Assembly: GCA_964035575.1 (NCBI GenBank)
Contig: OZ037835.1
Coordinates: 248,001 to 312,000, forward strand
From: Rhynchopus sp. YZ270_cl-10
Lineage: Eukaryota
Length of the DNA: 64,000 bases
Reading direction: 5' to 3'
In this document: in pieces, positions 1 through 40,330 of the stretch
How the letters are laid out: every line of letters begins with the position of its first letter
Position numbering within the stretch: the stretch's first letter is position 1
Program-made: the position numbers and the translations under genes
Notes under the pieces: model-generated
The model's database searches: none
Seen by the model: the letters and a program-made list of their open reading frames with translations, nothing else
What the model was told of the DNA's origin: nothing

Positions 1-1152
1 CGACATGCCTGCAAGCGTGAGGCCTTGATAGAAGTATTGGAACACAAGCACCGGGGCGGAGGGGAGGCGCAGCAGGCCCACTACGTCCCGATCCTTGAAG
101 AAGGTGGGGAACAGGCACGTCCCCACGACACGCACGACAGGCACCGCAACGAAGCAGGCAGCTATGAAGGTCGCCAGCATCGCAATGTTGGCGGCGACGG
201 CGCCGACGGGCTTGCTGTTGTCCAGCGAGAAGCCTGTCGGGTGCAGTGCCGTCGAGAGGTCGTGCGAGCAGCCTTTGCTCACCAAAGCCAGACGCAGTGC
301 AGCACCACTGGAGAACCCCGACGCTGAGCTTGCCACAGCGAGTGTCGTGGATGAGTCCTCAAACCCCATCAGGTCCACCTTCACGTCTGCGATGCTCGTC
401 AGAGGCGGTGGTGCAGTGTCGTTCAGAGTGTCCACGAAGTCTGGTGCTGGAGTCGGTGGTGCCAACGTTGCAGGTGCCGGTGTCGGCGGTGAAGGGGTTG
501 GAGGCGAAAGTGTGGGTACCAATGTCGCTGGAGCATCTGTAGCAGGTGCGTCTGTGTCAGGTGCATCTGTAGGTGGTGCTGTTGGCGGTGCATCAGTGTC
601 CGGAGCATTTGTCGCATCGCACGCATAGAACTTGAAGTTCTTGACGGTGCCGTCGAGCGGCGTATCTTGGGCCCACGGGCTGCTCTTCACCTGGTTGATC
701 GTGCGTGTGACCATGAGGGGAAGAGCTGCGACGCCACTCACGCGCTCGACACCATCGATGTAGAGCACAGCCGTCCCTGTCGTAGGGCCCGTGCGTGTGT
801 ACACCAGCACCATAGACATCTCGACACCCAACGGCGAGGCTACGGGGTCCGAGATCCCAACCTGCATTGTGGCGCCGTGGTACACATGGGAGTCCCACTT
901 CCCCTCATATAGCCCAAGCAGCACATTGTCCTGGTCTCGTCCATTCGAAAAGTCAAACACACGTCCCCAAGACGTCACTGCATTCACGGTCACATCCGCC
1001 TCCATCCGGAACCCACCCCCAAAGGTTAGAGTTCGGGTAGAGTCAAGTTCACTGCTGTCTGCGAACGACGTGAGCAGGATGGGATCAGCACACGGCTGTG
1101 GTGGCACAGCTGCAGCACTGCATATCAAAGCAGACAAGAATGCAAATCGCAT
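1..1152 (-). CDS. LamG/ConA-like lectin + Pro/Thr stalk + multi-TM receptor (3'-truncated by window edge)
   Basis: Manual translation from ATG 1152: MRFAFLSALICSAAA (signal peptide), ...WGRVFDFSNGRDQDNVLLG...LYIDG...RTINQVKSSPWAQDTPLDGTVKNFKFY (LamG_3-like), then a short DAP/PTP stalk, then a TM module nearly identical to 8423-8870 and 26309-26764. Absent from the ORF track because it runs off the edge. Confidence 0.85.
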   Translation of the reverse strand, partial: MRFAFLSALICSAAAVPPQPCADPILLTSFADSSELDSTRTLTFGGGFRMEADVTVNAVTSWGRVFDFSNGRDQDNVLLGLYEGKWDSHVYHGATMQVGISDPVASPLGVEMSMVLVYTRTGPTTGTAVLYIDGVERVSGVAALPLMVTRTINQVKSSPWAQDTPLDGTVKNFKFYACDATNAPDTDAPPTAPPTDAPDTDAPATDAPATLVPTLSPPTPSPPTPAPATLAPPTPAPDFVDTLNDTAPPPLTSIADVKVDLMGFEDSSTTLAVASSASGFSSGAALRLALVSKGCSHDLSTALHPTGFSLDNSKPVGAVAANIAMLATFIAACFVAVPVVRVVGTCLFPTFFKDRDVVGLLRLPSAPVLVFQYFYQGLTLAGMS

Positions 1153-1579
1153 TTCTGTAGTGTGGTGTAATGTGGTGGGTTGGAGAGGGTGGGGTGGTGG
1201 GGGGCAGGTGTAGCCGTAATTCCGGGGGTCAAAACCCGCGATCCCCGATCCCCGATCCCCGGCTTAATTTAGGGGGGGGTTTTATGAGGAAAAATCAGGA
1301 AAACGGTAAAAAAATGTCAAAAATCTGTTCGTTTGCACACTGTGAAAAAAATCGCGACCCACCGCTGAAAGCGCAAGGTGTTAACCTTGTGAGAGCCTGT
1401 GAGAGCTTACTGAGAGCTTATGAGGTCCTGTGCTGTGGTAGCGCACAGTACATAGAGTACACACATTGCTTTCTTCAGGGTCTGTTATGTGTGTGATGTA
1501 TTGTACGACTTCGCAACTAGAGTGTTCAGGTCAACGAAGTTCAAAGAATGGGAAAGGGATACTGTGCTCACATTGTTGA

Positions 1580-2720
1580 AATGGGGTTGGGGCTGTGGTG
1601 GGTGAACATGGTCAAAGAAAAACAACACCTCACCAAAGCCGCTTCCTTTGTAGGTAGCCGTACACATTGAGGAGCACTCATGCGCACGTTTTGCGGGGAA
1701 AACATGTCGTTGCGCACTCACTGAGGACTGTTGTGGTGACATGGCTTGACACGTCCAGCTTGTCCAAGTCTTTGCAAAGTGACTTCGATAACGTGTCTAC
1801 CTTTTGCCTGGTGGAATCAGGTCAGAAGTTGTGAAATGGGAAAATGGGGAGAGGGTGACGTTTGCTGAACGAGCGCTATGAGGGGTTTCTTAGAAAAAAA
1901 ACTTGTTTGTTCTCTGCACTAACATCACTTGGCAACATTCATTTTAACCAAAAACCAAAAACTTGCCCACGTGTGAACTCCACGCATTTTCTAATTAGAA
2001 CGGTACGAGACGAGAAGTGAGCAGGCATAGCTTGGGGGTGGGGCCTTGAAAGCTTGGGAAAGGACGAGTCAAGCGGACTGGTCAATTTCTTGACCATCAA
2101 GAAAGAAAAGGTGTGATGAACCTAAGCCTACGTGTGCTTAGTCACCTTTGCACACATTCGGTGTCGCTCATCAAGAAACAACAAAAAAAAAAAGTATGCA
2201 GCAAACAATAGTAATATGATGAAGACAATGACTCTTGCAACAAAAAAAAAATCGGCAGAGGGATTCATCGCAAAATGCCACGTTATGGGTTGCCTTTGCT
2301 GGCTTGCGGAAAAGTAGCCGACCCAAAAACTGTGGTCAAGCGAATTCATTTTCTGCCGGTGCGTTTTGATGCAAGGTACTGCTCCAAGTAAGAAAGCTGA
2401 AAGATGAATGTGCCTCGCGCTGCATAAGGCATACGGCGTGGGGGCAAAATACCGGTTTTGGGGGGGGACAATTTCACGGGGGAGAGTCGGTAAAAAAAAA
2501 CTAAAAAAAGATTGTGGCTCTAAAGGTGTGCGTGTCTCTACAGACGCCACACCAGCAGAAGATGACACGAGGCTGGCTTTGCCATTGTAGCCTTCCCCTC
2601 ATAGCGACGCTGGGAAAGGAACAGGTGGGTTGCAAACTATCGCGCAGGCGCACGGTGCGCTTCGCCACGCTGCATGCTTCCGTTTCCTTCGGCGTTTGAC
2701 CAAGTTCTGGTCTCCCACGG
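1580..2720. repeat. Segmental duplicate of about 15890-17600, including an orphan UBL-LRR 5' flank with no CDS
   Basis: GTTGGGGCTGTGGTGGGTGAACATGGTCAAAG... is identical to the region upstream of ATG 15846; colinear with indels. Confidence 0.85.
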
Positions 2721-3156
2721 TGTGCCCTTGAGCGCGTGAGAAGGGAGGAGCACAAGAGGGTGAAAACAGTTAGAGCGACCGTAGCATTTCCCCTGTCAAC
2801 TTCGTTTGACCATTTTCTTTCCTTACTTCAAAAACTCTCTCTTTTTTAATTTCTAATTATTTGGTTTTGGTTGAGACACATCAATGGTGTCGGTTCTGTG
2901 GAATCACTGAACCACCCATATCCTGTATCACATCGTTGATTATTCTTTCCCTGCGTTGACTGCAGGAAAGTTCGCGAGCTATCGCGACCACCATTTTTAA
3001 AAAAGATGAAAAGCAGAGAGTTAAAAAAGGAGAAAGAACAGCAAAAAACGTTGTGTGAAAAAGTTTTTTCTGTCAAGTGTTTTTGTGCGTTAGCGGAGAA
3101 GAAAACAGTTTTCGATAAAAGGCTCCTGCGTCGGTTTTCTCTTTCACAAAAAAAAA

Positions 3157-3596
3157 ACAAGTAATTGCTATCGGAAAAAAAACGGGGTGTGATGTGGAAC
3201 TCCATCCTGTAGAAATAGTCTACAACACACCCAGCATTCTGCTCTTCTGCAGGTATGCTAACGCTCTTCGTACGCTGCCAGACCCACTGGGACGCCAGCA
3301 TCTGAAACGTTCAAGAAGGGGGGCTGTCCTCTTCGTCCAGCACCATCTGCTCGATAGCGTTGTTGGACGCCCGCTCGGCAGGCTCGGCGTGGTCCAGCTC
3401 GTTTTTGTCCACAGGCTCCCACATTGTCGTCGTCGTTGGAGCAGTGCGGAAGGAACACAGAATGCACAGACTACAACACATCGATCACACCAGGTGCATC
3501 AGCACCTCCAGCAAATCGCCAGGATGCTACGGTGGTTTCGAAAATCGCGCGGAGTTTTCCACAGCACACCCCGCTTTTTCCTTAGCAATTACTTGT
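3157..3596. mobile_element. 440-bp element with imperfect ~45-bp terminal inverted repeats; Helitron/Helentron Rep-like remnant (copy 1)
   Basis: Ends ACAAGTAATTGCTA / TAGCAATTACTTGT; near-identical copy at 44426-44864; minus strand encodes VVDYFYRMEF. Confidence 0.7.
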
Positions 3597-3712
3597 CCTT
3601 GTTGTTATTATTGTTTTCAACCACCTTCCTTCAACCCTTGTAGGATCAGTTCATATTTGTTGTTATTTTTTTCGCGAAAACATAAAATTACACATTTCAA
3701 GAGAACAAATTA

Positions 3713-4499
3713 AAAAGGGTCCTTATTTGCATTTTTGGGCTCCGCCCGTGCAGTGGTGGGGTCAATCTCGAAAATTGGACAATTTTTTGACCACTTAAAT
3801 TTTGAGAAATATGAGCCCGGTTGCTTATACGTGGGGCCCATTTTTGGCCAAAATTTTCCTCAAAATCTGGTTTTGTAAAATTGACCCTTTACTCCCCCCC
3901 CACATCGATTTCAATACTATACCTTACTTCACCTACGGTTGCCCTTACAGGGGGGGTGAAGGAAGGTAAGTTGAAAAGGGTCCTTATTTGCATTTTTGGG
4001 CTCCGCCCGTGCAGTGGTGGGGTCAATCTCGAAAATTGGACAATTTTTTGACCACTTAAATTTTGAGAAATATGAGCCCGGTTGCTTATACGTGGGGCCC
4101 ATTTTTGGCCAAAATTTTCCTCAAAATCTGGTTTTGTAAAATTGACCCTTTACTCCCCCCCCACATCGATTTCAATACTATACCTTACTTCACCTACGGT
4201 TGCCCTTACAGGGGGGGTGAAGGAAGGTAAGTTGAAAAGGGTCCTTATTTGCATTTTTGGGCTCCGCCCGTGCAGTGGTGGGGTCAATCTCGAAAATTGG
4301 ACAATTTTTTGACCACTTAAATTTTGAGAAATATGAGCCCGGTTGCTTATACGTGGGGCCCATTTTTGGCCAAAATTTTCCTCAAAATCTGGTTTTGTAA
4401 AATTGACCCTTTACTCCCCCCCCACATCGATTTCAATACTATACCTTACTTCACCTACGGTTGCCCTTACAGGGGGGGTGAAGGAAGGTAAGTTGAAAA
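3713..4499. repeat. Three identical tandem copies of a 261-bp unit
   Basis: The same ORF recurs at 3821, 4082 and 4343 (period 261; the third differs only where it runs out of the array). A single diverged copy lies at about 46650-46926. Confidence 0.95.
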
Positions 4500-4510
4500 C
4501 AAAAAATTAT

Positions 4511-4610
4511 TACGCATCCATTTGCCGTTTGGATAAAGAAAACAAAGACGAAACGGGTTTTGGGGGGCAGAGTCAAAATTCTTGAACGCATCCCCACACT
4601 CAGTCACACT
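4511..4610. repeat. Dispersed ~100-bp intergenic repeat
   Basis: TACGCATCCA...TTTGGATAAAGAAAAC...CTTGAACGCATCCCCACACTCAGTCA; similar copies near 11235, 18620, 19755 and 61930. Confidence 0.85.
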
Positions 4611-5687
4611 TTCAAACAAAAACACGAAAGTGTCACTTGTCGTTCCCTCACCCCCCTTTCTTGTAGTTGTTTGATGCGTTGACGCTTCCACACATAAAAA
4701 TCACCTGTTGGGTGGTGTTGCGGAGCACGGTTGGGTGAGTGAACGACGTGACACTTTCCGCTCACAAAGTAGTGTGCGTCAAAAAAAAATACCAATAAAA
4801 AAGAAGACAAAAGAAAGAACATTCTCTTCAAGATACGTCTATAGTACTAGGGAGATAATACACTAAGAACAAGAAGGTTGCCGCCAAGCAACCTAGTTCC
4901 ACAAAACCCCGGTTCCCCTGCAGACCAGGTGACCGCACGATGAGAACAAAATTTTTTTTTGTGAGATGATCGACACCTTACAGGCCAGTCATCTTAAGGG
5001 CATACCCTCAAAAGTAAAAATAATGTTTCATGGGTGTGGCCCAAAAAGAAGTCTACACAAAAAAATGGGTTTTGAAGATTAGTATCCTCCTCCTATCATA
5101 GCGAGATCCATTCAAGAGAACAAAGCGTTGGGAGGGACGCAACCACGGTGACCAGTATGATGTGGGAGAGACGTTAAAAAAGTGGACGAAAATACTGGTT
5201 GAGAAATTGCTCTCCCCGCGCGGAGGGGGCAAATATAGTACCAACCAGTATCCGACCCCAGTGTCTGGGAGAGGGTATGCTAATTTTTGACGCTCTCCCC
5301 GCTCATACTGGCCACGTGACTGACACCCCTCTATTCGGAAACGCATCTATGTATCTCAAGGATGAAGGACCAACAGAAGATCAAGAAAACACAGTTCCAA
5401 AATATTTTATAACGCATTCAGATGATTCTTGCACCAAAAAAGAAAAAAAAATGGGCAAATAGAAACTAACTTCAGGTTCTGAATAAAAAGAAACCAAATG
5501 AAAAACAAACTTTTTCGTTTATCGCTCCGCAAGCTTGATGTGTTTTTTCGCTGAAGTGTGTATTGTGTTGTGAGAGAGAAACAATGAGTGAGAAAAACAC
5601 AAGCTGGAGGGCACGCACCTTCCGTCGTTTCTATTTCCTATTGTCAAGTATCTTGACTTACAAAAAAAAAAAAACAAAAACGCCAAA

Positions 5688-5887
5688 GGGAAGGCTAGTT
5701 TTTCCATTTAATATTACAAAGTAACAATAAACCATTTTTTCCAGTGACGCCTCCTATGTAGCACGGAAAAACCGTTTTTCTGAATTGTCATTTATTGTTA
5801 CAACAAGGCGGACGTGCACATCCGAAAACACTTGCATTTGCATTTCCGGTATGCTTTGTAACATTAAATGGAAAAACGAGCCTTCCC
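5688..5887. mobile_element. Short MITE, GGGAAGGCT TIR family (internally deleted)
   Basis: GGGAAGGCTAGTTTTTCCATTTAAT...ATTAAATGGAAAAACGAGCCTTCCC, flanked by AAA on both sides; internal sequence is the inverse of 6307-6667. Confidence 0.7.
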
Positions 5888-6306
5888 AAAAAAGGAAAAA
5901 AATGAGTTCAACCTTACCCTTACTAAAAAGGGAGGGGAAGTTGTGGAAAATAACAAGTTTGGTGCTCCTGACTGACGACGGTACTTCTTGCGTACTTCTT
6001 GCGTACTTCTCACGTACTCAGTGCGTAGTTGTTGCGTACTTGGTATTTTGGATTCCTGGGGTACCAAAGTTTAAAAAAAATTTGGTGGGATGGCGGTTCT
6101 TATTGGTACAAAAAAATAGCACAAGACTGTCAAGGACAAAATAGAAATCGCACAAACAATAAAACAATAAAGACAAAAGGGAGAGGTTGTGGTGAAACGC
6201 ACACATCTCGACCTGTCGGTAAAATGTGGCTCTACTCCAACCCGCCCCAGAATAGAAATTGAAACCACATTTCTACTTTAACTTTTTATGCTTTTCATCC
6301 CCGTAA

Positions 6307-6667
6307 GGGAAGGCTCGTTTTTCCATTTAATGTTACAAAGTAACAATAAAGGGGGGGGAGGGGGTCCGACCGAAATCCGGGGAAAAAACTTTTTTTTTTG
6401 TAACAATGGCGGGAAAAAGTGGCTTTTTCCAACAACAAGAACTTGTCCATTTCGGCAGATTGACCCCACCACAGCGTGGACGGATTCCGGAAATGCAAAT
6501 GCGGGTGTTTTCGGATGTGCACGTCCACTGCGCCTTGTTGTTACAATAAATGAAAATTCGGAAAAACGGTTTTTCCGTGTAACATAGGGGGTGGGGAGGG
6601 GGGGGGGTCACCGGGAAAAATGGTTTATTGTTACTTTGTAACATTAAAAGGAAAAACGAGCCTTCCC
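6307..6667. mobile_element. MITE with ~44-bp TIRs and TAA target-site duplication (PIF/Harbinger- or Zator-like)
   Basis: TAA|GGGAAGGCTCGTTTTTCCATTTAATGTTACAAAGTAACAATAAA ... TTTATTGTTACTTTGTAACATTAAAAGGAAAAACGAGCCTTCCC|TAA. Confidence 0.85.
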
Positions 6668-7203
6668 TAAACAATAAAGCAATAAAAACAATAAAGACAA
6701 AAGGGAGGTTGTGGTGAAACGTGAAAACATGAAGAATGGGGATAAACGAAAATGGGTACTAGGAAATTGGGTACCACCGAATTTACCCTAAAAACAATAA
6801 AGACAAAAGGGAAAGGTTGTGGCGAAACGCACACATCTCGATCTGTCGGTGAAATGTGGCTCTACTCCAACCCGCCCCAGAACAGAAAATAGAAAAAGGA
6901 AGGGAGTAGGGGTACGGTGTTCAAGTTCCTTTTAGCATTGTATTCAAAAAAGGTGCCCCTTCAGTGCACCAGGTACAGAGCATCTTTCAAGAAAATCGAA
7001 CATTAGCTCCGCACCACGCACTCATGCCACCCAAAAATACACATGGTGATCCGGGAGGCACAAAAACAATACCAAAAAAAAAACAAAACAAAAAAAAAAC
7101 AAAAGCTCCCAAGCAATTTGTGAAACGCAATTCTCCTTCTCTCGTCTCTCTCGGACCTTCCAAATGATTTGTGTTGCGAAGGAGACCTTTCCAACACACT
7201 ATG

Positions 7204-10200
7204 CTAGACGCACCAACCCACCCCTCCCGTCTGGTCTGCGTGTGAAGGAGCTATAACTAATCCATTCCCGTGAAACACACTACTGCGACGACGCTGGGAT
7301 CGGGGGCTGTGCTGCCTGCCGTGTCGGGGGGCCTGCAGGGTGCCTCTTCCACGTCCACCTCCTCCGTCTGCTTCTTCTAAGTCGCGACCACTGATGCCTG
7401 TGGTGGTAGGTGCACTGCCACCACCGTAGATGGTAGCACTGCCCCCAGCCTCGTCGGCAAGAAATGAATCCCTCAGCCCTGCCACAAGAGGGGTGAAACT
7501 GTCCCTGTTATCCAGGAAGCCTTCACTGCCACGGCCGCGGGAGTGCGGTAAAAGATGTTTGGTGGGTGTGATGGGGACTTGCCGTGGTGTTTCATGTGCC
7601 CAGTTTTTTGGTGTAGGACAGCTCAAGAGCTCAAGACCGTTTTCGATGTCGACGCTGAGGAGCGAGGCATTAGGCATCTCGGCGCGGGTGTCGCTCTGCC
7701 GATCGGAGGTGTCTGACTGTGTGGTCTCGAGAATGCACCCACCTTGGGGATGTATGAGGAGGGCTGATTTGTTCAAAACGTCTTCCTGAAGGTTGCCCCT
7801 ACGTCCTGATGTGATGACGTATACTTCGGTAAGGATGTCTAAAGCAATTTTGACAACCAGAAGAATGAAGGCCACAGTCAGCAGCTTGGAGGAGACGTCA
7901 AACAGCCATGAGTCCAGCGTGGCCGTGTAGTACCCTGCAGCCATCACCACCATCGCGGCGAGCTGCGTGCCCAGGAGGAGGATGTCCAGCGCAGCATCCC
8001 TGGAGCGTGCGTGAGGCCAGAACAGACCTTCCAGCATCAGGAGAACTAAGAAGACAAGCCCAGAAGCCATCTTGACGTGCCCACACCCTTCGCTTGTCTC
8101 AGGCGCCGTGCTCTGAATCGCGCTCAGCGCGAAGGAAGAGACAAACTCGATAAGAAGAAACCACGTCGCGCCCTGCTTGTACGGGCGGATCACGGTGTAG
8201 CGCTGCACCCACATCGGGTTACGTTGCATGGACACCCACTCCCCTTCGCCTAGGAGCGAGATAAGTGCACGGTTCTGTCTTCCTTCCGCTCTCGCATACA
8301 CACCGTACGCAGGAACACCTTGAGTGATGGTGAGGTGCAACACCACAGGCACCACAGCGCACACCAGCAGAATAGCCACACCCACAGCAGCATGCCAGCC
8401 CTTCTCCGGGTAGAACACAAGCGACATGCCTGCAAGCGTGAGGCCTTGATAGAAGTATTGGAACACAAGCACCGGGGCGGAGGGGAGGCGCAGCAGGCCC
8501 ACTACGTCCAGATCCTTGAAGAAGGTGGGGAACAGGCAGGTCCCCACGACACGCACGACAGGCACCGCAACGAAGCAGGCAGCTATGAAGGTCGCCAGCA
8601 TCGCAATGTTGGCGGCAACGGCGCCGACGGGCTTGCTGTTGTCCAGCGAGAGGCCTGTGGGGTGCAGTGCCGTCGAGAGGTCGTGCGAGCAGCCTTTGCT
8701 CACCAAAGCCAGACGCAGTGCAGCACCACCGGAGAACCCCGCCGCTGAGCTTGCCACAGCGAGTGTCGTGGATGAGTCCTCAAACCCCATCAGGTCCACC
8801 ACCTTCACGTCTGCGATGCTCATCAGAGGCGGTGGTGCAGTGTCGTTCAGAGTGGCCACGAAGTCTGGTGCCACAGTCGCGTGAGGCACTGTGGTTTCGG
8901 GAACGTCTGTGGCAGGGAGTGCAGCAGGTGTGTAGGTCGTTGGTGTTGTGGTGTCCATGGGTGTGTCGGTGGCCAGTGGTGTGTAAGTAGCGGCGTAGAG
9001 TGGTGCTGCAGTGAGGGGTGTGGCCGTGTCTGGTGCAGGTGTCGGTGCTGTGGTGAGTGGTGGCAGGGTGGCAGGCGGGGATGTTGCTGGTGGTGCTGTT
9101 GCCGGTGCAAGCGTCGGAGGTGCAAGAGTCTCAGGTGCTTGTGTTTCAGGTGCCAGTGTGGCTGGTGACAAAGTCGGTGGTGGCAAGGTGGCTGGCGCTC
9201 CCGTCAGTGGTGGGTTCGTCACCGGTGCTGGTGTTGCAGGTGCTTGTGTCGGTGGTGCCGCTGTTGCTGGTGCCGGTGTAAGTGGTGCCAGTGTTGGCGG
9301 GGCTGGAGTCAGTGGTGCAGAGGTCGCAGGTGCCACTGTTGCAGGCACAAGTGTAGGTGGTGCCACTGTAAGTGGTGCAGATGTAAGGGGCGCCGCTGTT
9401 GCCGGTGCCGGTGTTGGTGGTGCCAAAGTTGCCGGCACTGGCGTTGGCGCCAATGTTGGCGGAGCGGGTGTTACTGGAGCTGTTGTAGGTGGTGCTGGCG
9501 TCTGCGGTGCTGGTGTCGGAGGCGCCACTGTCGGTGGTGCTGGTGTTGGTGGTGCCAGAGTTGGCGGTGAAGGTGTGGGTGCTAATGTTGGAGGTGCTGG
9601 CGTCGGAGGTGCTGGTGTTGGAGGTGCTGGTGTGGGCGCCAGTGTAGGTGGTGCCGGTGTTGGTGGTGAAGGGGTTGGAGGCGCGGGTGTGGGTGCCAAT
9701 GTCGGAGGTGCTGGTGTTGGTGGTGCTGGTGTCGGTGGTGCTGGTGTTGGTGGTGCCAAAGTTGGCGGTGAAGGTGTGGGTGCTAATGTTGGAGGTGCTG
9801 GCGTCGGAGGTGCTGGTGTTGGTGGCGCTGGTGTGGGCGCCAGTGTAGGTGGTGCCGGTGTTGGTGGTGAAGGGGTTGGAGGCGCGGGTGTGGGTGCCAA
9901 TGTCGGAGGTGCTGGTGTTGGTGGTGCTGGTGTCGGTGGTGCCGGTGTCTCTGCGTCGTACACAGCTTCGAAGATGCTGTTCCTGTTGCCGCCGCCGCAC
10001 TTTGCGGTTGCATCGCCGTCACACGTGCGCCAGCACTCCGTTTCTGAGTAACTGCCGTACGTACCGTACGTGTTGTCGCAGTAGCACTCACGATGGTACT
10101 GCAGACCGAAGTACCTGAAGGGCGCACCCGTCGCACTCGTTGTGCAGAACGACATACACTTGGCAGGCGAGTTGTACAGGCCTGTCTGCTCAGCATCCCC

Positions 10201-10347
10201 TGTCAGGTCACGTGCCGAGCTCACATCGCCGTAGCACCCTTGGTACACTGCCACGTACGTTGCCCCCTCGCACTGTGGCAGAGCCAGCAGGACGGCCACC
10301 GCACAGAGCACACCTCTCACACTGCTCATGTGCATATGCAATTGCAT
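7204..10347 (-). CDS. WSC-domain, PTPAP mucin-stalk, ~7-TM surface receptor (1047 aa)
   Basis: Signal peptide; WSC signature YQGCYGD...C...C...YFGLQY..ECYC...C...CDGD...KCGG..RNS; ~350-aa P/T/A repeats; seven hydrophobic segments; cytosolic tail. The exact start Met is uncertain (three in-frame ATGs). Confidence 0.92.
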   Translation of the reverse strand: MQLHMHMSSVRGVLCAVAVLLALPQCEGATYVAVYQGCYGDVSSARDLTGDAEQTGLYNSPAKCMSFCTTSATGAPFRYFGLQYHRECYCDNTYGTYGSYSETECWRTCDGDATAKCGGGNRNSIFEAVYDAETPAPPTPAPPTPAPPTLAPTPAPPTPSPPTPAPPTLAPTPAPPTPAPPTPAPPTLAPTPSPPTLAPPTPAPPTPAPPTPAPPTLAPTPAPPTPSPPTPAPPTLAPTPAPPTPAPPTPAPPTLAPTPSPPTLAPPTPAPPTVAPPTPAPQTPAPPTTAPVTPAPPTLAPTPVPATLAPPTPAPATAAPLTSAPLTVAPPTLVPATVAPATSAPLTPAPPTLAPLTPAPATAAPPTQAPATPAPVTNPPLTGAPATLPPPTLSPATLAPETQAPETLAPPTLAPATAPPATSPPATLPPLTTAPTPAPDTATPLTAAPLYAATYTPLATDTPMDTTTPTTYTPAALPATDVPETTVPHATVAPDFVATLNDTAPPPLMSIADVKVVDLMGFEDSSTTLAVASSAAGFSGGAALRLALVSKGCSHDLSTALHPTGLSLDNSKPVGAVAANIAMLATFIAACFVAVPVVRVVGTCLFPTFFKDLDVVGLLRLPSAPVLVFQYFYQGLTLAGMSLVFYPEKGWHAAVGVAILLVCAVVPVVLHLTITQGVPAYGVYARAEGRQNRALISLLGEGEWVSMQRNPMWVQRYTVIRPYKQGATWFLLIEFVSSFALSAIQSTAPETSEGCGHVKMASGLVFLVLLMLEGLFWPHARSRDAALDILLLGTQLAAMVVMAAGYYTATLDSWLFDVSSKLLTVAFILLVVKIALDILTEVYVITSGRRGNLQEDVLNKSALLIHPQGGCILETTQSDTSDRQSDTRAEMPNASLLSVDIENGLELLSCPTPKNWAHETPRQVPITPTKHLLPHSRGRGSEGFLDNRDSFTPLVAGLRDSFLADEAGGSATIYGGGSAPTTTGISGRDLEEADGGGGRGRGTLQAPRHGRQHSPRSQRRRSSVFHGNGLVIAPSHADQTGGVGWCV

Positions 10348-11511
10348 CTGGATGTGGTGAGATGGGTGGTTGGGGAAGCGAGGGCAAGGAGGTGGTTAAA
10401 AATAGAGTGTGTGTGCTGCCTTATATTTAAAAATGCTCGAGAGACTCGTTCCTCTTTGCTTGTTGCTCAAAAGACTATAAACGGGGGGGAAAAAAGTAAA
10501 AGTTGTTTGTTGTTCGCTTCCACTGGCAAAAATTCAGGTCAAAATCACTTTTCCGACTATGCCTCGCGGCACAGTGTGTGACAAAACCAGAAAAAAGTAG
10601 CTCGAATAGACTACAAGCTTCTGGGTTCCGGAGGCGCCATCCCAGATTCACACATACGATAAAGTGATAGTTACTCCACTAAATAAATCGAGCAAAAATA
10701 TGGTGAACTCAGCGGTGCCCAGTTTTAAAAGTGCCAAAAACAACCTCTTTCTTTTGACGCATTGTGACTTCCTCAAATACACTTTTCAAGGGTAAAAAAA
10801 TTCGGGCATGATCCTGGATAAACAACAGCGCACGTCAGTTGTCTCACGTACAGTGTACACACCCTGAAAACGTAACCCCTTCCCTCTAGCACAGACTCCA
10901 TCTTTGGTAGTTGGTCTGCCCTACTGCCTCTTCTGCACCGTAGCTGAGTGCCACGGTGACAGCTTGTACCCACCTGCAAAAGAATGTTCGCAAGGTCCCT
11001 TCTTCTTCTAACGTAAAAAAGCGTAAAAAAACATAACAAAACCACACCACACTAAACATCAGAGCACGTGCCTGCAGATGCACAGTTGTTTCACATACAG
11101 TACACACACCCGACAAGGCAAAGAATACAAACATTTTACACAGACTAAATCTTCATCTTTGTGATCAATATCTTGACAATTCCCACAAAAACGTGGACCA
11201 CATTACAAACTGATGCTACCCTCATGAAATTATTACGCATCCACTCGACGTTTGGATAAAGAAAACCAGAGCTGAAAAGGGGTTTGGGGGGAAGAATCTA
11301 ATTCTTGAACGCATCCGACACTCAGTCATACCAAAAATAATAAAACCTACATTCTTGAACTCTTCTACACGACGTGATTTTCATTGGACGCATCCCCTTC
11401 CACGCAACCATGTTGAAGGAGAGCGGGCTGCGCCGGAATAGGCAAAGGTCTAGCGCTCACCCAGTCCACCTCATCCAAAACAAAAGTGTCTCTGGATCTG
11501 CCCTCAAACGG

Positions 11512-11548
<37 letters not shown>

Positions 11549-11935
11549 GAAAAACGCTAATAACTTTTTGACCCCCCTCTGTAAGTGTTGGTTGAATTGG
11601 AGTCGGGGAGCACAAGCAAAGGGCAATGAAAGGAAAACAATGAATAAAAGAACAAGATAGAAGAGCCAGTATTTATGTCTGAACTACACACACAATTCCA
11701 ATCATTCGAACCGAAGACGCCCAAACATTTCGGTCTGTATTATTTCTTTACAACCGTACGCGTACCGCTTCGTCTGTTGTATACAAAAAAAAAGAGGCGA
11801 CCGGATGGAACGAGAGGTTTTTGGTGCTGTGCTACATAGCGGGCTTCCTCAAACACAAATGGCACGTGAGCCACCACTTGGTACCGCGAACCTCCCCAAT
11901 TCTGAGGCATCTGAAACGATCAGCACACATCATCG

Positions 11936-25092: not shown

Positions 25093-28000
25093 CTAGTCTA
25101 TGGTTGAAGGATCTATAACTAAGCTGTCCCTGTGAAGCACACTACTGCGACGACGCTGGGATCGGGGAGTAAGTTGCCAGCCGTGTCGGGGGGCCTGCAG
25201 GGTGCCTCTTCCACGTCCACCTCCTCCGTCTGCTTCTTCTAAGTCGCGACCACTGATGCCTGTGGTGGTAGGTGCACTGCCACCACCGTAGATGGTAGCA
25301 CTGCCCCCAGCCTCGTCGGCAAGAAACGAATCCCCCAGCCCCACAGCCAGAAGAGGGGTGAAACTATCTCTGCTCTCCCTGAAGCTTTCCCTGAAGCCTT
25401 CCCTGCCACGGCCGCGGGAGTGTGGTAAAGGACGTTTGGTGGGTGTGATGGGGACTTGCCGTGGTGTTTCATACAAAGAAACTTCACCGTTTTTTGGTGT
25501 AGGACAGCGCAAGAGCTCAATACCGTTTTCGATGTCGACGGTGAGGAGCGAGGCATTAGGCATCTCGGCGCGGGTGTCGCTCTGCCGGTCGGAGGTGTCT
25601 GACTGTGTGGTCTCGAGAATGCACCCACCTTGGGGATGTATGAGGAGGGCTGATTTGTTCAAAACGTCTTCCTGAAGGTTGCCCCTACGTCCTGATGTGA
25701 TGACGTATACTTCGGTAAGGATGTCTAAAGCAATTTTGACAACCAGAAGCATGAAGGCCACAGTCAGCAGCTTGGAGGAGACGTCAAACAGCCATGAGTC
25801 CAGCGTGGCCGTGTAGTACCCTGCAGCCATCACCACCATCGCGGCGAGCTGCGTGCCCAGGAGGAGGATGTCCAGCGCAGCATCCCTGGAGCGTGCGTGA
25901 GGCCAGAACAGACCTTCCAGCATCAGGAGAACTAAGAAGACAAGCCCAGAAGCCATCTTGACGTGCCCACACCCTTCGCTTGTCTCAGGCGCCGTGCTCT
26001 GAATCGCGCTCAGCGCGAAGGAAGAGACAAACTCGATAAGAAGAAACCACGTCGCGCCCTGCTTGTACGGGCGGATCACGGTGTAGCGCTGCACCCACAT
26101 CGGGTTACGTTGCATGGACACCCACTCCCCTTCGCCTAGGAGCGAGATAAGTGCACGGTTCTGTCTTCCTTCCGCTCTCGCATACACACCGTACGCAGGA
26201 ACACCTTGAGTGATCGTGAGGTGCAGCACCACAGGCACCACAGCGCACACCAGCAGAATAGCCGCACCCACAGCAGCATGCCAGCCCTTCTCCGGGTGGA
26301 ACACAAGCGACATGCCTGCAAGCGTGAGGCCTTGATAGAAGTATTGGAACACAAGCACCGGGGCGGAGGGGAGGCGCAGCAGGCCCACTACGTCCCGATC
26401 CTTGAAGAAGGTGGGGAACAGGCAGGTCCCCACGACACGCACGACAGGCACCGCAACGAAGCAGGCAGCTATGAAGGTCGCCAGCATCGCAATGTTGGCG
26501 GCGACGGCGCCGACGGGCTTGCTGTTGTCCAGCGAGAGGCCTGTCGGGTGCAGTGCAGTAGAGAGGTCGCGCGAGCAGCCTTTGCTCACCAAAGCCAGAC
26601 GCAGTGCAGCACCACCGGAGAACCCAACCGCTGAGCTTGCCACAGCGAGTGTCGTGGATGAGTCCTCAAACCCCATCAGGTCCACCACCTTCACGTCTGC
26701 GATGCTCATCAGAGGCGGTGGTGCAGTGTCGTTCACAGTGGCCACGAAGTCTGGTGCTGGAGTCGCGTGAGGCACTGTGGTTTCGGGAACGTCTGTGGCA
26801 GGGAGTGCAGCAGGTGTGTAGGTAGCTGGTGTTGTGGTGTCCATGGGTGTGTCGGTGGCCAGTGGTGTGTAAGTAGCGGCGTAGAGTGGTGCTGCAGTGA
26901 GGGGTGTGGCCGTGTCTGGTGCAGGTGTCGGTGCTGTGGTGAGTGGTGGCAGGGTGGCAGGCGGGGATGTTGCTGGTGGTGCTGTTGCCGGTGCAAGCGT
27001 CGGAGGTGCAAGAGTCTCAGGTGCTTGTGTTTCAGGTGCCAGTGTGGCTGGTGACAAAGTCGGTGGTGGCAAGGTGGCTGGCGCTCCCGTCAGTGGTGGG
27101 TTCGTCGCCGGTGCTGGTGTTGCAGGTGCTTGTGTCGGTGGTGCCGCTGTTGCTGGTGCCGGTGTAAGTGGTGCCAGTGTTGGCGGGGCTGGAGTCAGGG
27201 GTGCAGAGGTCGCAGGTGCCACTGTTGCAGGCGCAAGTGTAGGTGGTGCCACTGTAAGTGGTGCAGATGTAAGGGGCGCCGCTGTTGCCGGTGCCGGTGT
27301 TGGTGGTGCCAAAGTTGCCGGCACTGGCGTTGGCGCCAATGTAGGAGGTGCTGGTGTCGGCGGTGAAGGGGTTGGAGGCGAAGGTGTGGGTGCCGGTGTC
27401 GGAGGTGCTGGTGTTACTGGCGCTGGTGTAGGTGGTGCTGGCGTCTGCGGTGCTGGTGTCGGAGGCGCCACTGTCGGTGGTGCAGGTGTTGGTGGTGCCA
27501 AAGTTGGCGGCGCAGGTGTGGGTGCCAATGTTGGAGGTGCTGGTGTCGGCGGTGAAGGGGTTGGAGGCGAAGGTGTGGGTGCCAATGTCGGAGGTGCTGG
27601 TGTTGGTGGTGCCGATGTTGGAGGTGCTGGTGTAGGTGGCGCGGGTGTTACTGGCGCTGGTGTTGGTGGTGCTGGTGTAGGCACCAGTGTTGGTGGTGCT
27701 GGCGTCTGCGGTGCTAGTGTCGGAGGCGCCACTGTCGGTGGTGCTGGTGTTGGTGGTGCCAAAGTTGGCGGTGAAGGTGTGGGTGCTAATGTTGGAGGTG
27801 CTGGCGTCGGAGGTGCTGGTGTTGGTGGCGCCGGTGTGGGCGCCAGTGTTTGTGGTGCCGGTGTTGGTGGTGAAGGGGTTGGAGGCACAGGTGTGGGTAC
27901 CAATGTTGGAGGTGCCGGTGTTGGTGGTGCTGGTGTCTCTGCGTCGTACACAGCTTCGGAGACGCTGTTCCTGTCGTTGCCGCCGCACTTTTCGGTTGCA

Positions 28001-28323
28001 TCGCCGTCACACGCGAAGGAGCACTCTGTGTCTGAGAAAATGCCGTACGTACCGTACGTGTTGCCGCAGTAGCACTCACGGTAGTACTGCAGACCGAAGT
28101 ACCTGAAGGGCGCACCCGTCGCAGTCGTTGTGCAGAACGACATACACTTCGCATGCGTATTGTACAGGCCAGTCTGCTCCGCATCCCCTGAAAGGTCACG
28201 TGCCGTGGTCACATCGCCGTAGCACCCTTGGTACACTGCCACGTACTTTGCCCCCTCGCACTGTGGCAGAAGCAGCAGGACGGCCACCGCACAGAGCACA
28301 CCTCTCACACTGCTCATGTGCAT
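25093..28323 (-). CDS. WSC-domain, PTPAP stalk, ~7-TM surface receptor, paralog 2 (1076 aa)
   Basis: Same architecture as 7204-10347; flanking DNA is also duplicated. Confidence 0.92.
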
Positions 28324-29193
28324 GTTTGCAATTGCATCTGGATGTGGTGTGATGTGGTTGGGGGAGCGAGGGCAAGGAGGTGGTTAAAAATAGAGAGTGT
28401 GTGTGCTGCCTTATATTTAAAAACAAAACGCAACTTGTGGGGGAGGAGCAGTGGGGGAAAGGGTTTTATTTTAATCACCGCGCCACAGGGCTCGTGTGGG
28501 GAACAATCCTCTTCGAGAATGGAGAAGGGTGGAAGGCGAGAGGCGTAGTGGTGTGCATGGAGGGGTGGCATGGGTGGCGCAGTGCAAGGAGTGTGAATGG
28601 GAGGGGAGGTTTGTGTCCTTTGTTTTCATCCCTAACTTTCAACAAACATGCCCCTCACCACTTCAGCAGGTGAAGAACGTTTTCCTACCTTTGGAACAGG
28701 AGCAAGTTCGCAGAGATAGTGGATGCACCATGTGTGCAACACCACCCATCGTTTGATAACAACCTTCGGATTCCCGACACACTTACTTCTGCAACACATC
28801 ACAGTCACCATCTTGCTCCCAACACTTCCACTTGCACTGACGTCTCTTGTCGTGGTGGAAGGTCCAGCAGCAGCAACAGCAGTATCTTGGGTTTGTGCAA
28901 CCAAGTAGTAAAACCACCAAGCAACGCCCTGGACACCTGGACCCCCCTTTTCCACCTTCGTACTTCATTGCAAGAAGATGGATTACAAAACAGAAGGGTT
29001 TCGCTTTGTGTGCATTTTGTTGTGGTGTTTGTTCATGACAATGACACACAAGAGAAGAGAGGGGGAAGAGAGTAGCAAGCTTGTGTAGTGGCAGGAAAGT
29101 GTGAAATACATGGCACGTAGTACGACCGCAGAAAACTACGCCATGGTCAACGATTAAGTGTAACTCATTCTGTTTTTACTTTATTTTGTATTA

Positions 29194-30099
29194 GGGCAGG
29201 GCAATTTTTCTTCTCGTTTCTCATTATGCGCGCGCGCATTATTTTTGAAATCCCAAAAAAAAAACTAGTCTTAAAAAAAACTAGTGGTAAGGTAACGCAG
29301 TTACCTTACCACTAGTTTTTACCTGGGTGAAGGCCCAAAACGTCTTCATGGAGATCACATGTACGTTGTGTGGGAAACACAGGGGAGTATACAGAAAGAG
29401 CGCCGCCCTCGGGGACAAGTACAAGAAGTTCCTGACACCCCTTGTGAAGGAGGCACAGTACAGCTGCTGCAGTGTGTTCCCTCCAGCAGACGCGGAGGGG
29501 GGGAAAGCGGGCAAGCGTATCAAGCTCGACACTGTGTTCGCCGTAAGAGGGAACACAGCTGCATGCTCCCGACGGAGTGGATCCTCTGGACGTGGCGGAA
29601 GAACAGGGGTTTGTGCAACAGATGCGCACACTGTGGGGCAGAAGCCAACCTTCTGGAAGTGCCTTCGTCCTACTCAAAATATGGACAAGTGCAGAAAATC
29701 TGTTCGGGGTGCAACACACGGGGTCTGAAGCCTGTGGGCAAGTGCGAAAAAAAAGCCGACACCCTCGCAAATAGAAGTAGCGCGACCGGCCGGACAGAAG
29801 AACCGCGGCAAGCGACTGCATCAGAGACGACGCCACCCACAACTGCTCCCACCCAACCCACCCTAGCACCCAAAGCCGCTAAGAAGGCACCGCGCAAGGG
29901 CGGGGTGGGGTGGGGTGGGTATAGGGTGGCTCGGGGAGGTTACTCCGCAGCCAACAACGTATCATCATGTTTTTCCCCCACTAAGACCTACGTGGTAGGT
30001 GGGGTATTTTTTTTCGACTAGTTATTTTTTTTTTGCGCGCGCGCGCGCATTTTTTTGAGCTGCAAATAATAAGAAACGAGAAAAATACTTGCCCTGCCC
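29194..30099 (+). mobile_element. 906-bp TIR element, TTA TSD, carrying a frameshifted Cys-rich transposase-like remnant
   Basis: TTA|GGGCAGGGCAA...TTGCCCTGCCC|TTA; empty paralogous site at about 32523-32545; internal CTLCG...YSC..., then after a frameshift CMLPTEW...CAHCG...ICSGC. Confidence 0.88.
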
Positions 30100-30143
30100 T
30101 TACTCAGAAACGGCACGCAGTGTGTACGAAAAGGATCAAGGTA

Positions 30144-31386
30144 TCATTCCATCATTGCTGGTGGCCCAAGAAGATTATCCTGTTCACGAAACCACTCTGT
30201 GAGAAGATTGTTGCAGGCTTCAACATCTTCGTGGCTACATCCCTTTCCCCCTCCAGCTTGGCCCAGGTCTAGGTCAGAGCGTAACGGTGGGTGGTGATGA
30301 TCTCCACCTCGTTCCAATAGGATTCTTCTAATTTTCTCCGTCTCCAACACTGTCTTCCGCACAACCGACAAGTCCTTCTCAGCTCTCTGTGAGTGTATGT
30401 AAGATAAATGACAGTAGTAAAAAACAAGAAAAACTAAACTAACGTTTTGCCAGTTGATTTGCCCTCACAAATCTACTACGTGTGACTTTTTTCGTTGACC
30501 GCAGCACGTCAATACACTGTGCATCAAGGAACACACATGTTGCGAATGGGTGACACTGGGAAGAGAAAATAAAAAGGTGCGTGTGAATAGCAAGGGTCAT
30601 ACGTTTGCCTTCTCCTTGAACTTAGAGATCATGGCACGGTACATGTTGGCCTCGCTATCATCTCCAACATAGACACCACGCTCAGCAGCCTTAGTGTCAC
30701 CACAAAGTTCGCAAACACGACAAACTAACAAATTCGTTATGTCAGTGATCTTCGTATTGCGCGTCGAAAGCCGAGCCTCCAGATGCGCCTTGTACGTTTG
30801 GGCATTTCCAAGTCCGTCAGAGCGTAACGGTGGGTGGTGATGATCTCCACCTCGTTCCAATAGTATTCTTCTACATGTCTCCCTCTCCAACACTGTCTCC
30901 CGCACAACCGACAAGTCCTTCCTAACTCTCTGTAAGTGTGTGCAAAATAGGTGCAAAAAGCAAGTAGACCACTCGCCGTGCCTCCAAAAGGTCTCATGTT
31001 CCCTACGCCACACAGACAGTACAACCACATGTAATGACTCAACTCAAAGGGTGAGTGAATAGAAACTACAAAGAGCTCTACACACGACACACATGTTGTG
31101 AATGGGTGACACTGGGAAGAGAAAATAAAAAGGTGCGTGTGAAAAGCAAGGATCATACGTTTGCCTTCTCCTTGAACTCGGAGATCATGGCACGGTACAT
31201 GTTGGCTTCCTCATCCTCTCCAACATAGATACCACGCTCAGCAGCCTTAGTGTTTCCACGAAGGAAGTGAACACGACCAACTAACAAATTCGTTTCGTCA
31301 GTGATGTTCGTCTTGAGCGCCAAAAGCTCAGCCTGCATATGCACCACGTAAGGATCAGGTGCCACACAGTTGGTGTAGTAAGACAT
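30144..31386 (-). CDS. Predicted 3-exon coiled-coil protein of unknown function (~265 aa; exons 31386-31159, 30929-30603, 30386-30144)
   Basis: Phase-0 introns GTATGA...ACAG at 31158-30930 and 30602-30387 join EFKEKAN|RVRKDLSVV and EFKEKAN|RAEKDLSVV in frame. Confidence 0.7.
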
Positions 31387-31944
31387 ACTTAAAGGGAATG
31401 GGTAAGGATAGGGAACGAGAGAGAAGGGGTTGCACTTCCTGTGGGTGGGTTGATGACATAATATGTGTGGGGGGGATGCTCTTTTGCATCCTTTGTTTTC
31501 ATCCCTAACTTTCAACAAACATGCCCCTCAGCACTTCAGCAGTTGTAGAACGTTTTCCTACCTTTGGAACAGGAGCACACAAGTTCGTATATATATTGGA
31601 TGCACCATGTGTGCAACACCACCCATCGTCTGATAACAACCTTCGGATTCCCAACACACTTACTTCTGCAACACATCACAGTCACCATCTTGCTCCCAAC
31701 ACTTCCACTTGCACTGACGTCTCTTGTCGTGGTGGAAGGTCCAGCAGCAGTATCTTGGGTTTGTGCAACCAAGTTGTAAAGCCACCAAGCAACGCCCTGG
31801 ACACCTGGACCCCCCTTTTCCACCTTCGTACTTCATTGCAAGAAGGTGGATTACAAAACAGAAGGGTTTCGCTTTGTGTGCATTTTGTTTTGGTGTTTGT
31901 ACTGTATTGCATCTATCTTTACGTATATTCCCGCATGAGTGGCT

Positions 31945-32373
31945 TCAAGACAGGTGTGAGATGTCAACAATCTCAACACTCCCATGCCCTTCGTAGACCA
32001 CCACACCACCACAGCTGCTGATTGCAAGACTGTTCTTTTGGCTGCTCTCCTGCTGCAAGAGTTGCTTCCCTGTTGAGATGGACCACAGACACAACGTATC
32101 AAAAGAGTGGGCAGCAACAATGTCGTTCGACACAGCAATATCACCCCAGACGTTTTCTGAGTCGTTTTCAAATACACATTCACCTGTTTCGATGTTCCAG
32201 ACACGCACATAGTGCTCGCAACACGCTGCAATGAAACGCTGGTTTGGTGTCAGTGCTACGTAATCAACATGAGAAGGGCACGTAAGTACAAGCACCTTCA
32301 CCCCTGTTGTGTAGTCCCACACAGTGATGTCACGATTAACAAACGTCGCCACCCTGTCGCCTGACACCACCAT
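31945..32373 (-). CDS. WD40-like repeat protein or terminal exon (142 aa)
   Basis: ITVWDYTTG, VRVWNIETG and LCLWSISTG at about 40-aa spacing; pyrimidine tract + AG just upstream; too short for a full propeller. Confidence 0.65.
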   Translation of the reverse strand: MVVSGDRVATFVNRDITVWDYTTGVKVLVLTCPSHVDYVALTPNQRFIAACCEHYVRVWNIETGECVFENDSENVWGDIAVSNDIVAAHSFDTLCLWSISTGKQLLQQESSQKNSLAISSCGGVVVYEGHGSVEIVDISHLS

Positions 32374-32581
32374 GACGTACTTGCACACAAGAGAAGAGAG
32401 GGGGAAGAGAGTAGCAAGCTTGTGTAGTGGCAGGAAAGTGTGAAATACATGGCACGTAGTACGACCGCAGAAAACTACGCCATGGTCAACGATTAAGTGT
32501 AACTCATTTTGTTTTTACTTTATTTTATATTTCTCGGAAACGGCAGGCAGTGTGCACGAAAAGGATCAAGGTATCATTCTG

Positions 32582-33270
32582 TCATTGCATGGGCCCAAGA
32601 ATATCCTGCTGCAAGATTAAAAAATCTGTGAGAAGATTGTTGCAGGCTTCAACATCTTCGTGGCTACATCCCTTTCCCCCTCCAGCTTGGCCCAGGTCCA
32701 GGTCAGAGCGTAACGGTGGGTGGTGATGATCACCACCTCGTTCCAATAGTATTCTTCTAATTCTCTCCCTCTCCAACACTGTCTCCCGCACAACCGACAA
32801 GTCCTTCCTAACTCTCTGTAAGTGTGTGCAAAATAGGTGCAAAAAGCAAGTAGACCACTCGCCGTGCCTCCAAAAGGTCTCATGTTCCCTACGCCACACA
32901 GACAGTACAACCACATGTAATGACTCAACTCAAAGGGTGAGTGAATAGAAACTACAAAGAGCTCTACACGACACACATATTGTGAATGGGTGACACTGGG
33001 AAGAGAAAATAAAAAGGTGCGTGTGAAAAGCAAGGGTCATACCTTCTTGTCCTCCTTGAACTCGGAGATCATGGCACGGTACATGTTGGCTTTGCGATCA
33101 TATCCAACATAGATACCACGCTCAGCAGCCTCAGTATCACCACAAAGGGCGCAAACACGACAAACTAACAAATTTGTTTCGTCAGTGATCTTCGTATTGA
33201 GCGTCGAAAGCTCAGCCTCAAGACGCGCCACGTCACGCTCAAGTGCCACACAGTTGGTGTGGTAAGACAT
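32582..33270 (-). CDS. Predicted 2-exon coiled-coil protein (~153 aa; exons 33270-33043, 32815-32582)
   Basis: Intron 33042-32816 GTATGA...CTTACAG joins EFKEDKK|RVRKDLSVVRE in frame; paralog of 30144-31386. Confidence 0.7.
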
Positions 33271-33544
33271 ACTTAAAGGGAATGGGTAAGGATAGGGAAC
33301 GAGAGAGAAGGGGTTGCACTTCCTGTGGGTGGGTTGATGACATAATATGCGTGTGGGGAAGGTGGACACAGAGCAAAGGTGTGAAGGTGGAGGGTGGGCA
33401 AAGACTGGATGTGAGGGGAATACTCTTCGAGAACGGAGAAGGGTGGAAGGCGAGAGGCGTCGTCGTATGCATGGAGGGGTGGCATGGGGTGGCAGAGGTG
33501 CAAGGAGTGTGAACCCCCCTTTCCACCTTGGTACTTCATTGCAA

Positions 33545-38302: not shown

Positions 38303-39001
38303 TGGTGTTTTGTGTGTTTTCTGTTGTGGGAGTGGAGTGGTGCAAAACATAGCAAATGATGGTCTATCCATCCCCTGACCACTGTCGCAGTGTTCGCTGT
38401 GCTGCTCGACATTGCGTCGCTCAGAGGTGTGCGTATGTCCATGACATCCCATGTACTGCGCAAACCCGCAAACCCGCAAACTTTGCGGGTTTACGGGTTT
38501 GTGGGTCTGCCTACGTGCCGGATTACCACGCATTTTTCCTTGAATCAAAGTCTTCAAGAAAAAAAGACCAGGAAGCATCCAAGCCAATATCGTCAACGCT
38601 AACCTCAAGCTGCTCTTGGACATCGAAACTGTAAATCGTAACAAGGTTCTGTTTCGGACGATGATACCTCATCACAAGTATCATATCTCGAAAACCAAAA
38701 AGCTTCAGGCGTTTGAATCATTTCCCATCAAAGCCTTAATACAACAACAACATGCTTGTATCAGTGTACACACGCCAGGATGCAAAGAACTGTGCATAAA
38801 AAACATCGCCAGTTTGTTTTTTACTCTCGTTCTTTGTAGTTTTGAGGATTGGGGGAAAAAAATAAAATAATGGTCAATAGTGAACGTTACAACACCACAA
38901 GGGACATCATAAGTTTCTTGTTTTCAGTAGAGGAGCAAAGTGCAACGTGAAATGTAAAATTCGTTCAATGAGCGCCTAGCTTCTCGAAAGATGCACATGC
39001 C

Positions 39002-39916: not shown

Positions 39917-40330
39917 GGTTTTGTGTCTCTCTGTTTGCAGGTGTTTTCAATTGGGGGTAAGAGTACGCAAGAGACAACAAAGTTACAAGGGGAGAGGGCT
40001 TTTGTTTTGCTTTTGAAAACGCCGTTGTGTTAGTGTGGACACCCGAGGGTGTGCTCCAGATGTTAACTGTACAAAGGAACTGATGGGAATGCTGATGACT
40101 TGCCTAAAAATGCTGACTATTTTGGGTTGAAAAGCACACCACGATATTAGCAGAATTTATGCACTGTGGAACAGTGTAATGCACAAGAATCTCGCAAGAT
40201 CCAATCTTTGCATATTTTCATCAATACTGAAAAGACCTCTGATTTGTGAACTAAACACAGACCTCATCCCTATGGCCTATCCCCTCTTTACCTTCCCGTA
40301 AAGAAATGCACCAATGAAATAACGAGAAAC

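Follow-up and report, generated by a model that had tools for sequence, protein, structure and literature searches.

A diplonemid gene family with variable heads on a shared, predicted seven-helix module, and the stalk as a probable site of head exchange

Three genes in a 64,000-nucleotide (nt) stretch of DNA from Rhynchopus sp. YZ270_cl-10 (contig OZ037835.1, positions 248,001 to 312,000, assembly GCA_964035575.1; this whole stretch is the window, and its own numbering is used below) carry unrelated heads on homologous membrane modules, a situation that is found both locally and family-wide. One of them, the LamG gene, begins with a LamG-like head, and the two others, WSC1 and WSC2, with a WSC domain. 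We propose, with a probability of roughly 0.7, that the three genes are members of a large diplonemid family which combines a predicted signal peptide and a variable head, predicted to bind glycans or proteins, with a stalk rich in proline, threonine and alanine (P/T/A), a module of seven predicted transmembrane (TM) helices and a predicted cytosolic tail, that heads have been exchanged within the stalk, and that the proteins would be surface adhesins or contact sensors of the kind represented by bodonin.

The mosaic is directly visible in the DNA. In a self-blastn comparison the LamG gene is 96.7% identical to each WSC gene (window 1-455 against 8422-8879 and 26308-26765, 458 columns), and the near-identity ends at the TPAP/DFV boundary, the C-terminal end of the stalk; between LamG and WSC genes, blastn found no match in the heads or in the regions upstream. 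The second half of the LamG stalk is also homologous to the repeat stalk of the WSC genes (WSC1, 75% over 121 nt; WSC2, 30 nt without a mismatch at window 479-508), so that shared ancestry starts within the stalk, some 100 nt ahead of the stretch of near-identity. The initial annotation, which had described near-identity to both WSC genes, is thus borne out over positions 1-455 and has to be amended in that homology already begins inside the stalk. It had also recognized a LamG-like head and short stalk at 1-1152, and the minus-strand open reading frame (ORF) is indeed there, its head matching PF13385 (Laminin_G_3; E 4.4e-5) with 24.1 bits, under the 27.6-bit cut-off. Relatives pass this cut-off (paralogue P0004 with 44.4 bits, homologue P0040 with 30.9 bits), and each of the two LamG domains of P0004 shares 90-91% identity with the window's LamG head. 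The two WSC heads lie above the PF01822 cut-off (48.1 and 54.7 bits vs 27.8; E 1e-12 and 1e-14). Heads, WSC or LamG, span 100-160 amino acids (aa), and the stalks contain 33-39% P, 21-23% T, 20-21% A and 2-4% serine (S).

A mosaic of this kind might be made by assembly software rather than by evolution, the LamG-module junction being an assembly chimera or the LamG gene a pseudogene. The gene cluster is rich in repeats, which lends itself to such a reading, and a 3-nt in-frame deletion of the LamG gene module was not seen in runs X2 and X4. These belong to a set of public runs, consulted as contigs only (short unitigs), in which X2 and X3 come from one study and X4 from another. The stalk-to-module junction of the LamG gene is nevertheless bridged, with zero differences, by contigs covering 417-571 (X2) and 424-571 (X4), and contigs of X2 and X3 depart from the WSC1 module at 8871 with letters that match window 448-477. 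The window edge cuts the LamG gene after its second helix (TM2), and the protein P0011, identical to the window ORF over 335 of 335 overlapping residues, continues in an intact frame through the entire module and tail to the stop; as it comes from the same assembly, it shows that the gene is complete and is not an independent confirmation. The layout of LamG, stalk and module recurs, besides, in other genomes and transcriptomes. With contigs from two studies and an intact frame in P0011, the junction is to be considered real: its misassembly is unlikely, and an artefact or a pseudogene as the explanation of the whole gene is extremely improbable.

The family was explored with a phmmer search of the module against 1.84 billion representatives, in clusters at 50% identity, and it comprises 483 clusters at E<=1e-3 and 202 at E<=1e-30 (the best 150 of the 483 being listed). 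Twelve of the 30 members looked up have a source name, and all twelve are diplonemid (Diplonema papillatum, D. japonicum, Lacrimia lanifica, Flectonema neradi and Sulcionema specki), which makes a diplonemid origin of the window likely as well; nine of the 30 are Trinity transcripts, and in relatives, including the LamG-headed P0072 and P0080, head, stalk and module are found on single Trinity transcripts. Among 81 proteins with a long N-terminus scanned for heads, a named head at E<=0.01 (several below cut-off) was found in 26: WSC in 10, LamG in 4, PAN in 4, PA14 in 3, LVIVD in 2, and CUB, C-lectin and leucine-rich repeats (LRR) in 1 each. A stalk rich in P and T precedes the module in 68 of 87 proteins with a long N-terminus. 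On a tree of the module the head labels need 16 changes for 34 labelled rows, the minimum being 7, and well-supported branches alone force at least 4 head changes for WSC and at least 5 for LamG. The catalogue of N-terminal domains that the initial annotation had called for, made here on the proteins from the module search, holds WSC, LamG, PAN, PA14, CUB, C-lectin, LRR and propellers, and the cassette-like family that it had imagined is supported by these diverse heads on a common module, scattered on the module tree. Judging from the sequences, heads appear to have been exchanged repeatedly, but not freely, across the family. No account of this diplonemid family was met in the literature searched, which covers few subscription papers, and the main text of the D. 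papillatum genome paper makes no mention of bodonin, G-protein-coupled receptor (GPCR), lectin, WSC or receptor (PMC10161547).

The local cluster indicates where the exchange may have taken place. Five paralogues come from a contig of 491,126 bp, namely P0011 (LamG), P0004 (two LamG), P0012 (head outside the record), P0013 (WSC1) and P0014 (WSC2), with modules 94.9-98.9% identical and tails 78-91% identical. P0004 has, behind its two LamG heads, a LamG-type stalk start joined to a WSC-type stalk end; this joint differs from that of the window's LamG gene, and the P0004 module shares 97.5-98.9% identity with those of the WSC-type genes but 95.2% with that of the other LamG gene. The stalk switch of P0004 falls where the LamG gene and WSC1 share 20 of 21 nt, and in-frame breakpoint pairs within an exact match of at least 13 nt number 21 of 20,634 for WSC1 and 46 of 22,572 for WSC2, i.e. 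0.1-0.2%. The joint that yields tandem LamG domains is present in three of the four runs. Two different joints and a varying number of heads, all inside the stalk, point to the stalk as the recombination site, and the role of recombination joint that had been attributed to it beforehand gains support from stalk homology and from the P0004 switch in this microhomology. Unequal crossover of clustered paralogues at short stalk microhomologies would create chimeras and alter stalk length and head number, and gene conversion would then homogenize the stalk end and the module.

WSC1 and WSC2 suggest how this second step may have operated. Their identity reaches 97-100% over 7701-9300, falls to 85-96% in the tail, repeat stalk and head, and is lower in the flanks. 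Synonymous divergence (dS) rises from 0.017, 0.041 and 0.012 for segments of the stalk end and module to 0.083 for the head and 0.092 for the tail, the contrast of core with head and tail giving Fisher p values of 0.005 and 0.001, on counts that are small (2-12 synonymous changes per segment) and to that extent speak against our proposal. The LamG module is at dS 0.025-0.032 from the WSC modules, as close as these are to each other. The stalk end and module have thus likely been homogenized by gene conversion, as far as sequence divergence tells, which would explain much of the near-identity. Elsewhere, in other genomes, P0040 associates LamG, stalk and module (head 41%, module 42% identical) and P0029 associates WSC and module (head 46-49%, module 41% identical). 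Both pairings are therefore old and, the tract being conversion-like as well, the 97% identity does not date the swap.

It is then tempting to do without any recent swap, the LamG- and WSC-headed genes both being old and their modules alike through concerted evolution (gene conversion) only. Beside P0040 and P0029, this fits with the fact that WSC- and LamG-headed proteins (P0029, P0045, P0116, P0021, P0022) all come from equally long contigs of another assembly, that the high-identity tract of WSC1 and WSC2 has bounds, and that P0016 may be a less-converted counterpart of the LamG gene: about 90% identical to all five paralogues, P0016 shares D35, T46, T277 and R403 with the LamG gene only. 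Against it, the whole 3' part of the LamG gene belongs to the recent radiation, its tail being 84-88% identical to WSC-type tails, in contrast to the unrelated head and upstream region, which implies that a chimera did form within that radiation; P0004 displays a second, different joint, and at least one chimera-forming event is required within the local cluster. Concerted evolution as the sole cause seems somewhat unlikely to us, and we retain exchange within the stalk followed by conversion. A more divergent module copy (about 8% DNA difference, resembling P0016) was noticed in runs X2-X4 at window 393-413 and 8048-8436. The WSC1 and WSC2 heads (9958-10347 vs 27946-28323) show, on small counts, a nonsynonymous divergence (dN) of 0.092 for a dS of 0.083, and the head may be under relaxed or diversifying selection.

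The model of the WSC1 module consists of seven long helices (predicted local distance difference test, pLDDT, 91; predicted template modelling score, pTM, 0.88), with two short helices ahead of the seven, and a helical region of about 60 aa separates the stalk from TM1. Lysine and arginine make up 12-22% of the predicted inside loops vs 3-5% of the outside ones, both module cysteines are kept in 105 of 105 rows, and one N-glycosylation sequon is on the predicted outside. The predicted topology is N-out/C-in, with seven TM helices and an extracellular disulfide; the seven TM segments announced in the initial annotation agree with both the model and the loop charge pattern. Polar residues inside the helices are also kept (N71 in 109 of 113 rows, Q125 in 106 of 116, Q286 in 104 of 121, K/R324 in 112 of 121, D328 in 114 of 121). 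As modelled, the module would be a membrane fold without a whole-domain match among solved structures.

Adhesion GPCRs have the same overall layout, a signal peptide and a lectin-type or adhesive head followed by a mucin-like stalk, seven helices and a tail, and with seven helices, N-out, and GPCR chains among the weak fold matches of the module, the proteins might be taken for true members of that class. However, GAIN/GPS was not found in the family members (the GPS-like patterns used occur in 0 of 165 proteins), no beta-sandwich stands ahead of TM1 in the module model, no sequence match to adhesion GPCRs was seen, and the GPCR fold matches superpose three helices only. We consider a true adhesion-GPCR identity very improbable, and the resemblance brought up at the outset finds no support beyond analogy. 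The GPCR system of trypanosomatids is reported to be a reduced one (PMC3971589).

Another kinship is indicated by the Atlas, where the top named cluster for the module is DGF-1_C (score 0.94, 216 of 256 features, 45% of members carrying the family) and a PF06011 cluster scores 0.92 (21% of members carrying the family); a D. papillatum homologue gets the same neighbours, the PF11040 cluster scoring 0.94/0.93. The DGF-1-like lead given for the C-terminal module gains support, the Atlas placing it beside DGF-1_C. PF06011 is matched by 14 of the 72 members, with E 1.3e-6 at best, four of the 14 having been included because they already matched, and the best score is 27.4 bits (P0162), below the 28.5-bit cut-off. 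On this sequence-derived basis the membrane domains of bodonin/DGF-1 and PF06011 are probably distant relatives of the module; that these are its nearest families is weakly supported. Hat-TM domains occur in bodonids, according to a DGF-1 preprint (10.64898/2026.07.27.741050).

The link with PF06011 raises the idea that the module, in the manner of fission-yeast Pkd2, conducts ions when force or a ligand gates it, and that the heads would tether or gate it. The weak PF06011 matches over TM3-TM7, the Atlas score of 0.92 and the conserved polar residues inside the helices go in this direction, as do the nine predicted helices of Pkd2 (10.1101/2022.08.11.503631) next to the two short and seven long ones of the module model; Pkd2 is reported to pass calcium upon membrane stretch in vitro (PMC9727806). 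Yet a common ancestor does not demonstrate conduction, and the PF06011 matches shown all stay below cut-off, so that we hold conduction of this type to be distinctly doubtful. It is also unlikely, in our estimate, that bodonin, DGF-1 and FLC/Pkd2 share one non-GPCR seven-helix signalling or ion-conducting module on which diplonemids would have built crossover-diversified, lectin-tethered receptors doing the job of animal adhesion GPCRs.

Returning to the proposed family of exchangeable heads, a number of observations weigh against it. In the runs no contig covers a whole gene, X4 satisfies the 31-letter bridging rule only at the 455 boundary, and one of the two short-read studies may be the source of the assembly. 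Of the 81 scanned proteins 55 lack a named head, and a good many of the heads are something other than lectins. Head labels are more clustered than chance would have it (16 changes vs a shuffled mean of 19.8, with 3 of 500 shuffles as low), which makes swapping occasional, not free; the module tree itself is a FastTree tree of 155 rows, 121 of them without head label, and 55 of its 152 branches are unsupported. The P0004 joint is deduced from the protein only and was spotted after the fact. As for kinship, the window's own module has no Pfam family match, none of the PF06011 matches shown reaches the curated cut-off, DGF-1_C (PF11040) matches 1 of 72 members (E 0.0012), and the DGF-1 preprint reports no hat-TM profile match in D. 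papillatum (10.64898/2026.07.27.741050).

Table. Positions of the three genes and their parts in the window
Feature	Position	Strand	Basis or remark
LamG-headed gene, 5' part	1..1152	-	runs off the window edge; complete as P0011
LamG gene, predicted signal peptide	1105..1152	-	by inspection; similar N-terminus in homologue P0040
LamG-like (concanavalin A-like) head	619..1104	-	PF13385 E 4.4e-5, below cut-off
LamG gene, short P/T/A stalk, 57 aa	448..618	-	units of TDAP type followed by PTP-type units with homology to the WSC repeat stalk
20/21-nt microhomology with WSC1 9089-9109	572..592	-	here the P0004 stalk changes from LamG type to WSC type; only the protein of P0004 is known
Junction TPAP/DFV, start of near-identity to WSC genes	447..455	-	self-blastn; recovered in short-read contigs
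Shared module start in LamG gene	1..447	-	two N-terminal small-residue helices, Cys, LHPT motif, TM1-TM2
WSC1 gene, 1047 aa from first ATG	7204..10347	-	signal, WSC, stalk, 7-TM module, tail
WSC1 head	9958..10263	-	PF01822 E 1.3e-12; Kremen1 WSC E 1.4e-8
WSC1 stalk, 362 aa	8872..9957	-	38% P, 23% T, 21% A; 15-nt repeat at 9224-9948
WSC1 shared 7-TM module	7747..8871	-	part 7747-8820 used for search and folding
WSC1 predicted cytosolic tail	7207..7746	-	sequence; R-R-x-S motifs
Homogenized tract, 97-100% identical to WSC2 counterpart (about 25587-27186)	7701..9300	.	likely gene conversion
WSC2 gene, 1076 aa	25093..28323	-	ORF, WSC domain match
WSC2 head	27946..28251	-	80% protein identity to WSC1 head
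WSC2 stalk, 396 aa	26758..27945	-	composition
WSC2 shared 7-TM module	25633..26757	-	98.3% protein identity to WSC1 module

The window holds other features. A second expanded family lies on the minus strand (11936-13243, 14139-15921, 36188-38668, 39002-39946, 51985-53100, 54789-61814, 63539-64000), in which the N-terminal domain is ubiquitin-like (one copy matches PF00240 at E 1.5e-4) and is followed by BspA-type LRRs (PF13306) made of 75-nt repeats in varying number, some copies looking split or frameshifted. An 880-aa ORF at 41386-44028 (minus) has two hydrophobic stretches and a weak HAMP match (E 0.013), a layout which we take to resemble that of receptor-type nucleotide cyclases; the profile scan gave no cyclase family match for it. 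Three identical 261-nt tandem copies at 3713-4499 are related to 46561-46927, the intergenic blocks 1583-2733, 3148-3602 and 4782-5334 recur in the window, and long, near-perfect minisatellites are found at 20500-20871 (14 nt), 23604-24065 (8 nt) and about 40331-40732 (6 nt). Local duplications at 28610-33358 include a WD40-like ORF (31945-32514, weak matches) and short repeated ORFs.

As to function, glycans or proteins are frequent ligands of WSC, LamG, PAN, PA14 and C-lectin domains, and a stalk rich in P and T is an extended spacer. By analogy, the most likely role of the family would be attachment to, or sensing of, prey or substrate: an extended, probably O-glycosylated stalk would hold the head off the cell, where it could bind prey or substrate glycans. 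Signalling or ion flux by the module is speculative, and so is the idea that the polar helix residues and basophilic kinase sites of the tail would link binding to a signal independent of G proteins. The family offers named, testable candidates for food recognition in diplonemids, protists that are abundant in the sea. A variable head on a seven-TM module is known already from bodonin, and there is nothing unusual in the shuffling of domains at low-complexity linkers; two recombination joints in one stalk make a clear natural example of ectodomain reshuffling. The kinship discussed above suggests, further, that the bodonin/DGF-1 membrane module is older than kinetoplastids.

Set beside known systems, the WSC-headed genes recall fungal Wsc1-type sensors and Kremen1, which likewise place a WSC head on a stalk, as in Wsc1 itself; those proteins are single-pass, whereas the diplonemid genes encode seven passes. 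Proteins with the PF06011 'TRP' domain, among which we presume the fungal FLC/Pkd2 to be counted, share with the family the weak, repeated profile matches over TM3-TM7, an extracellular N-terminal domain, an odd number of helices and a disordered cytosolic tail. They differ in that no TRP_N/ML-like head was seen in the diplonemid proteins, whose stalk is long and whose heads are interchangeable. DGF-1 of Trypanosoma cruzi also sets a large ectodomain on a C-terminal module of 7-9 helices and has been shaped by recombination or gene conversion (PMC9967923); its architecture is fixed, while the diplonemid head varies, its seven tandem beta-helix ribs are absent from the small diplonemid heads, and in place of its Ig-like hat domain of about 150 aa, which is absent, the diplonemid stalk runs directly into the helical region. 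Bodonin of Bodo saltans comes closest in organization: it is described as having an extracellular domain, a TM domain averaging seven helices and an intracellular tail, in 394 canonical copies, its TM domains resemble DGF-1, and a role in prey attachment is speculated (PMC4728078). Both are multi-copy families with a diverse, variable extracellular domain and a proposed function as adhesins for prey and substrate, and the Atlas sets the diplonemid module beside Euglenozoan clusters of DGF-1_C type. The bodonin ectodomain is repetitive and rich in serine, threonine and asparagine, whereas the diplonemid stalk is of P/T/A type and its heads are compact WSC, LamG, PAN and PA14 domains and propellers. 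We can therefore understand the present family, by this analogy, as a candidate, previously unreported diplonemid counterpart of bodonin.

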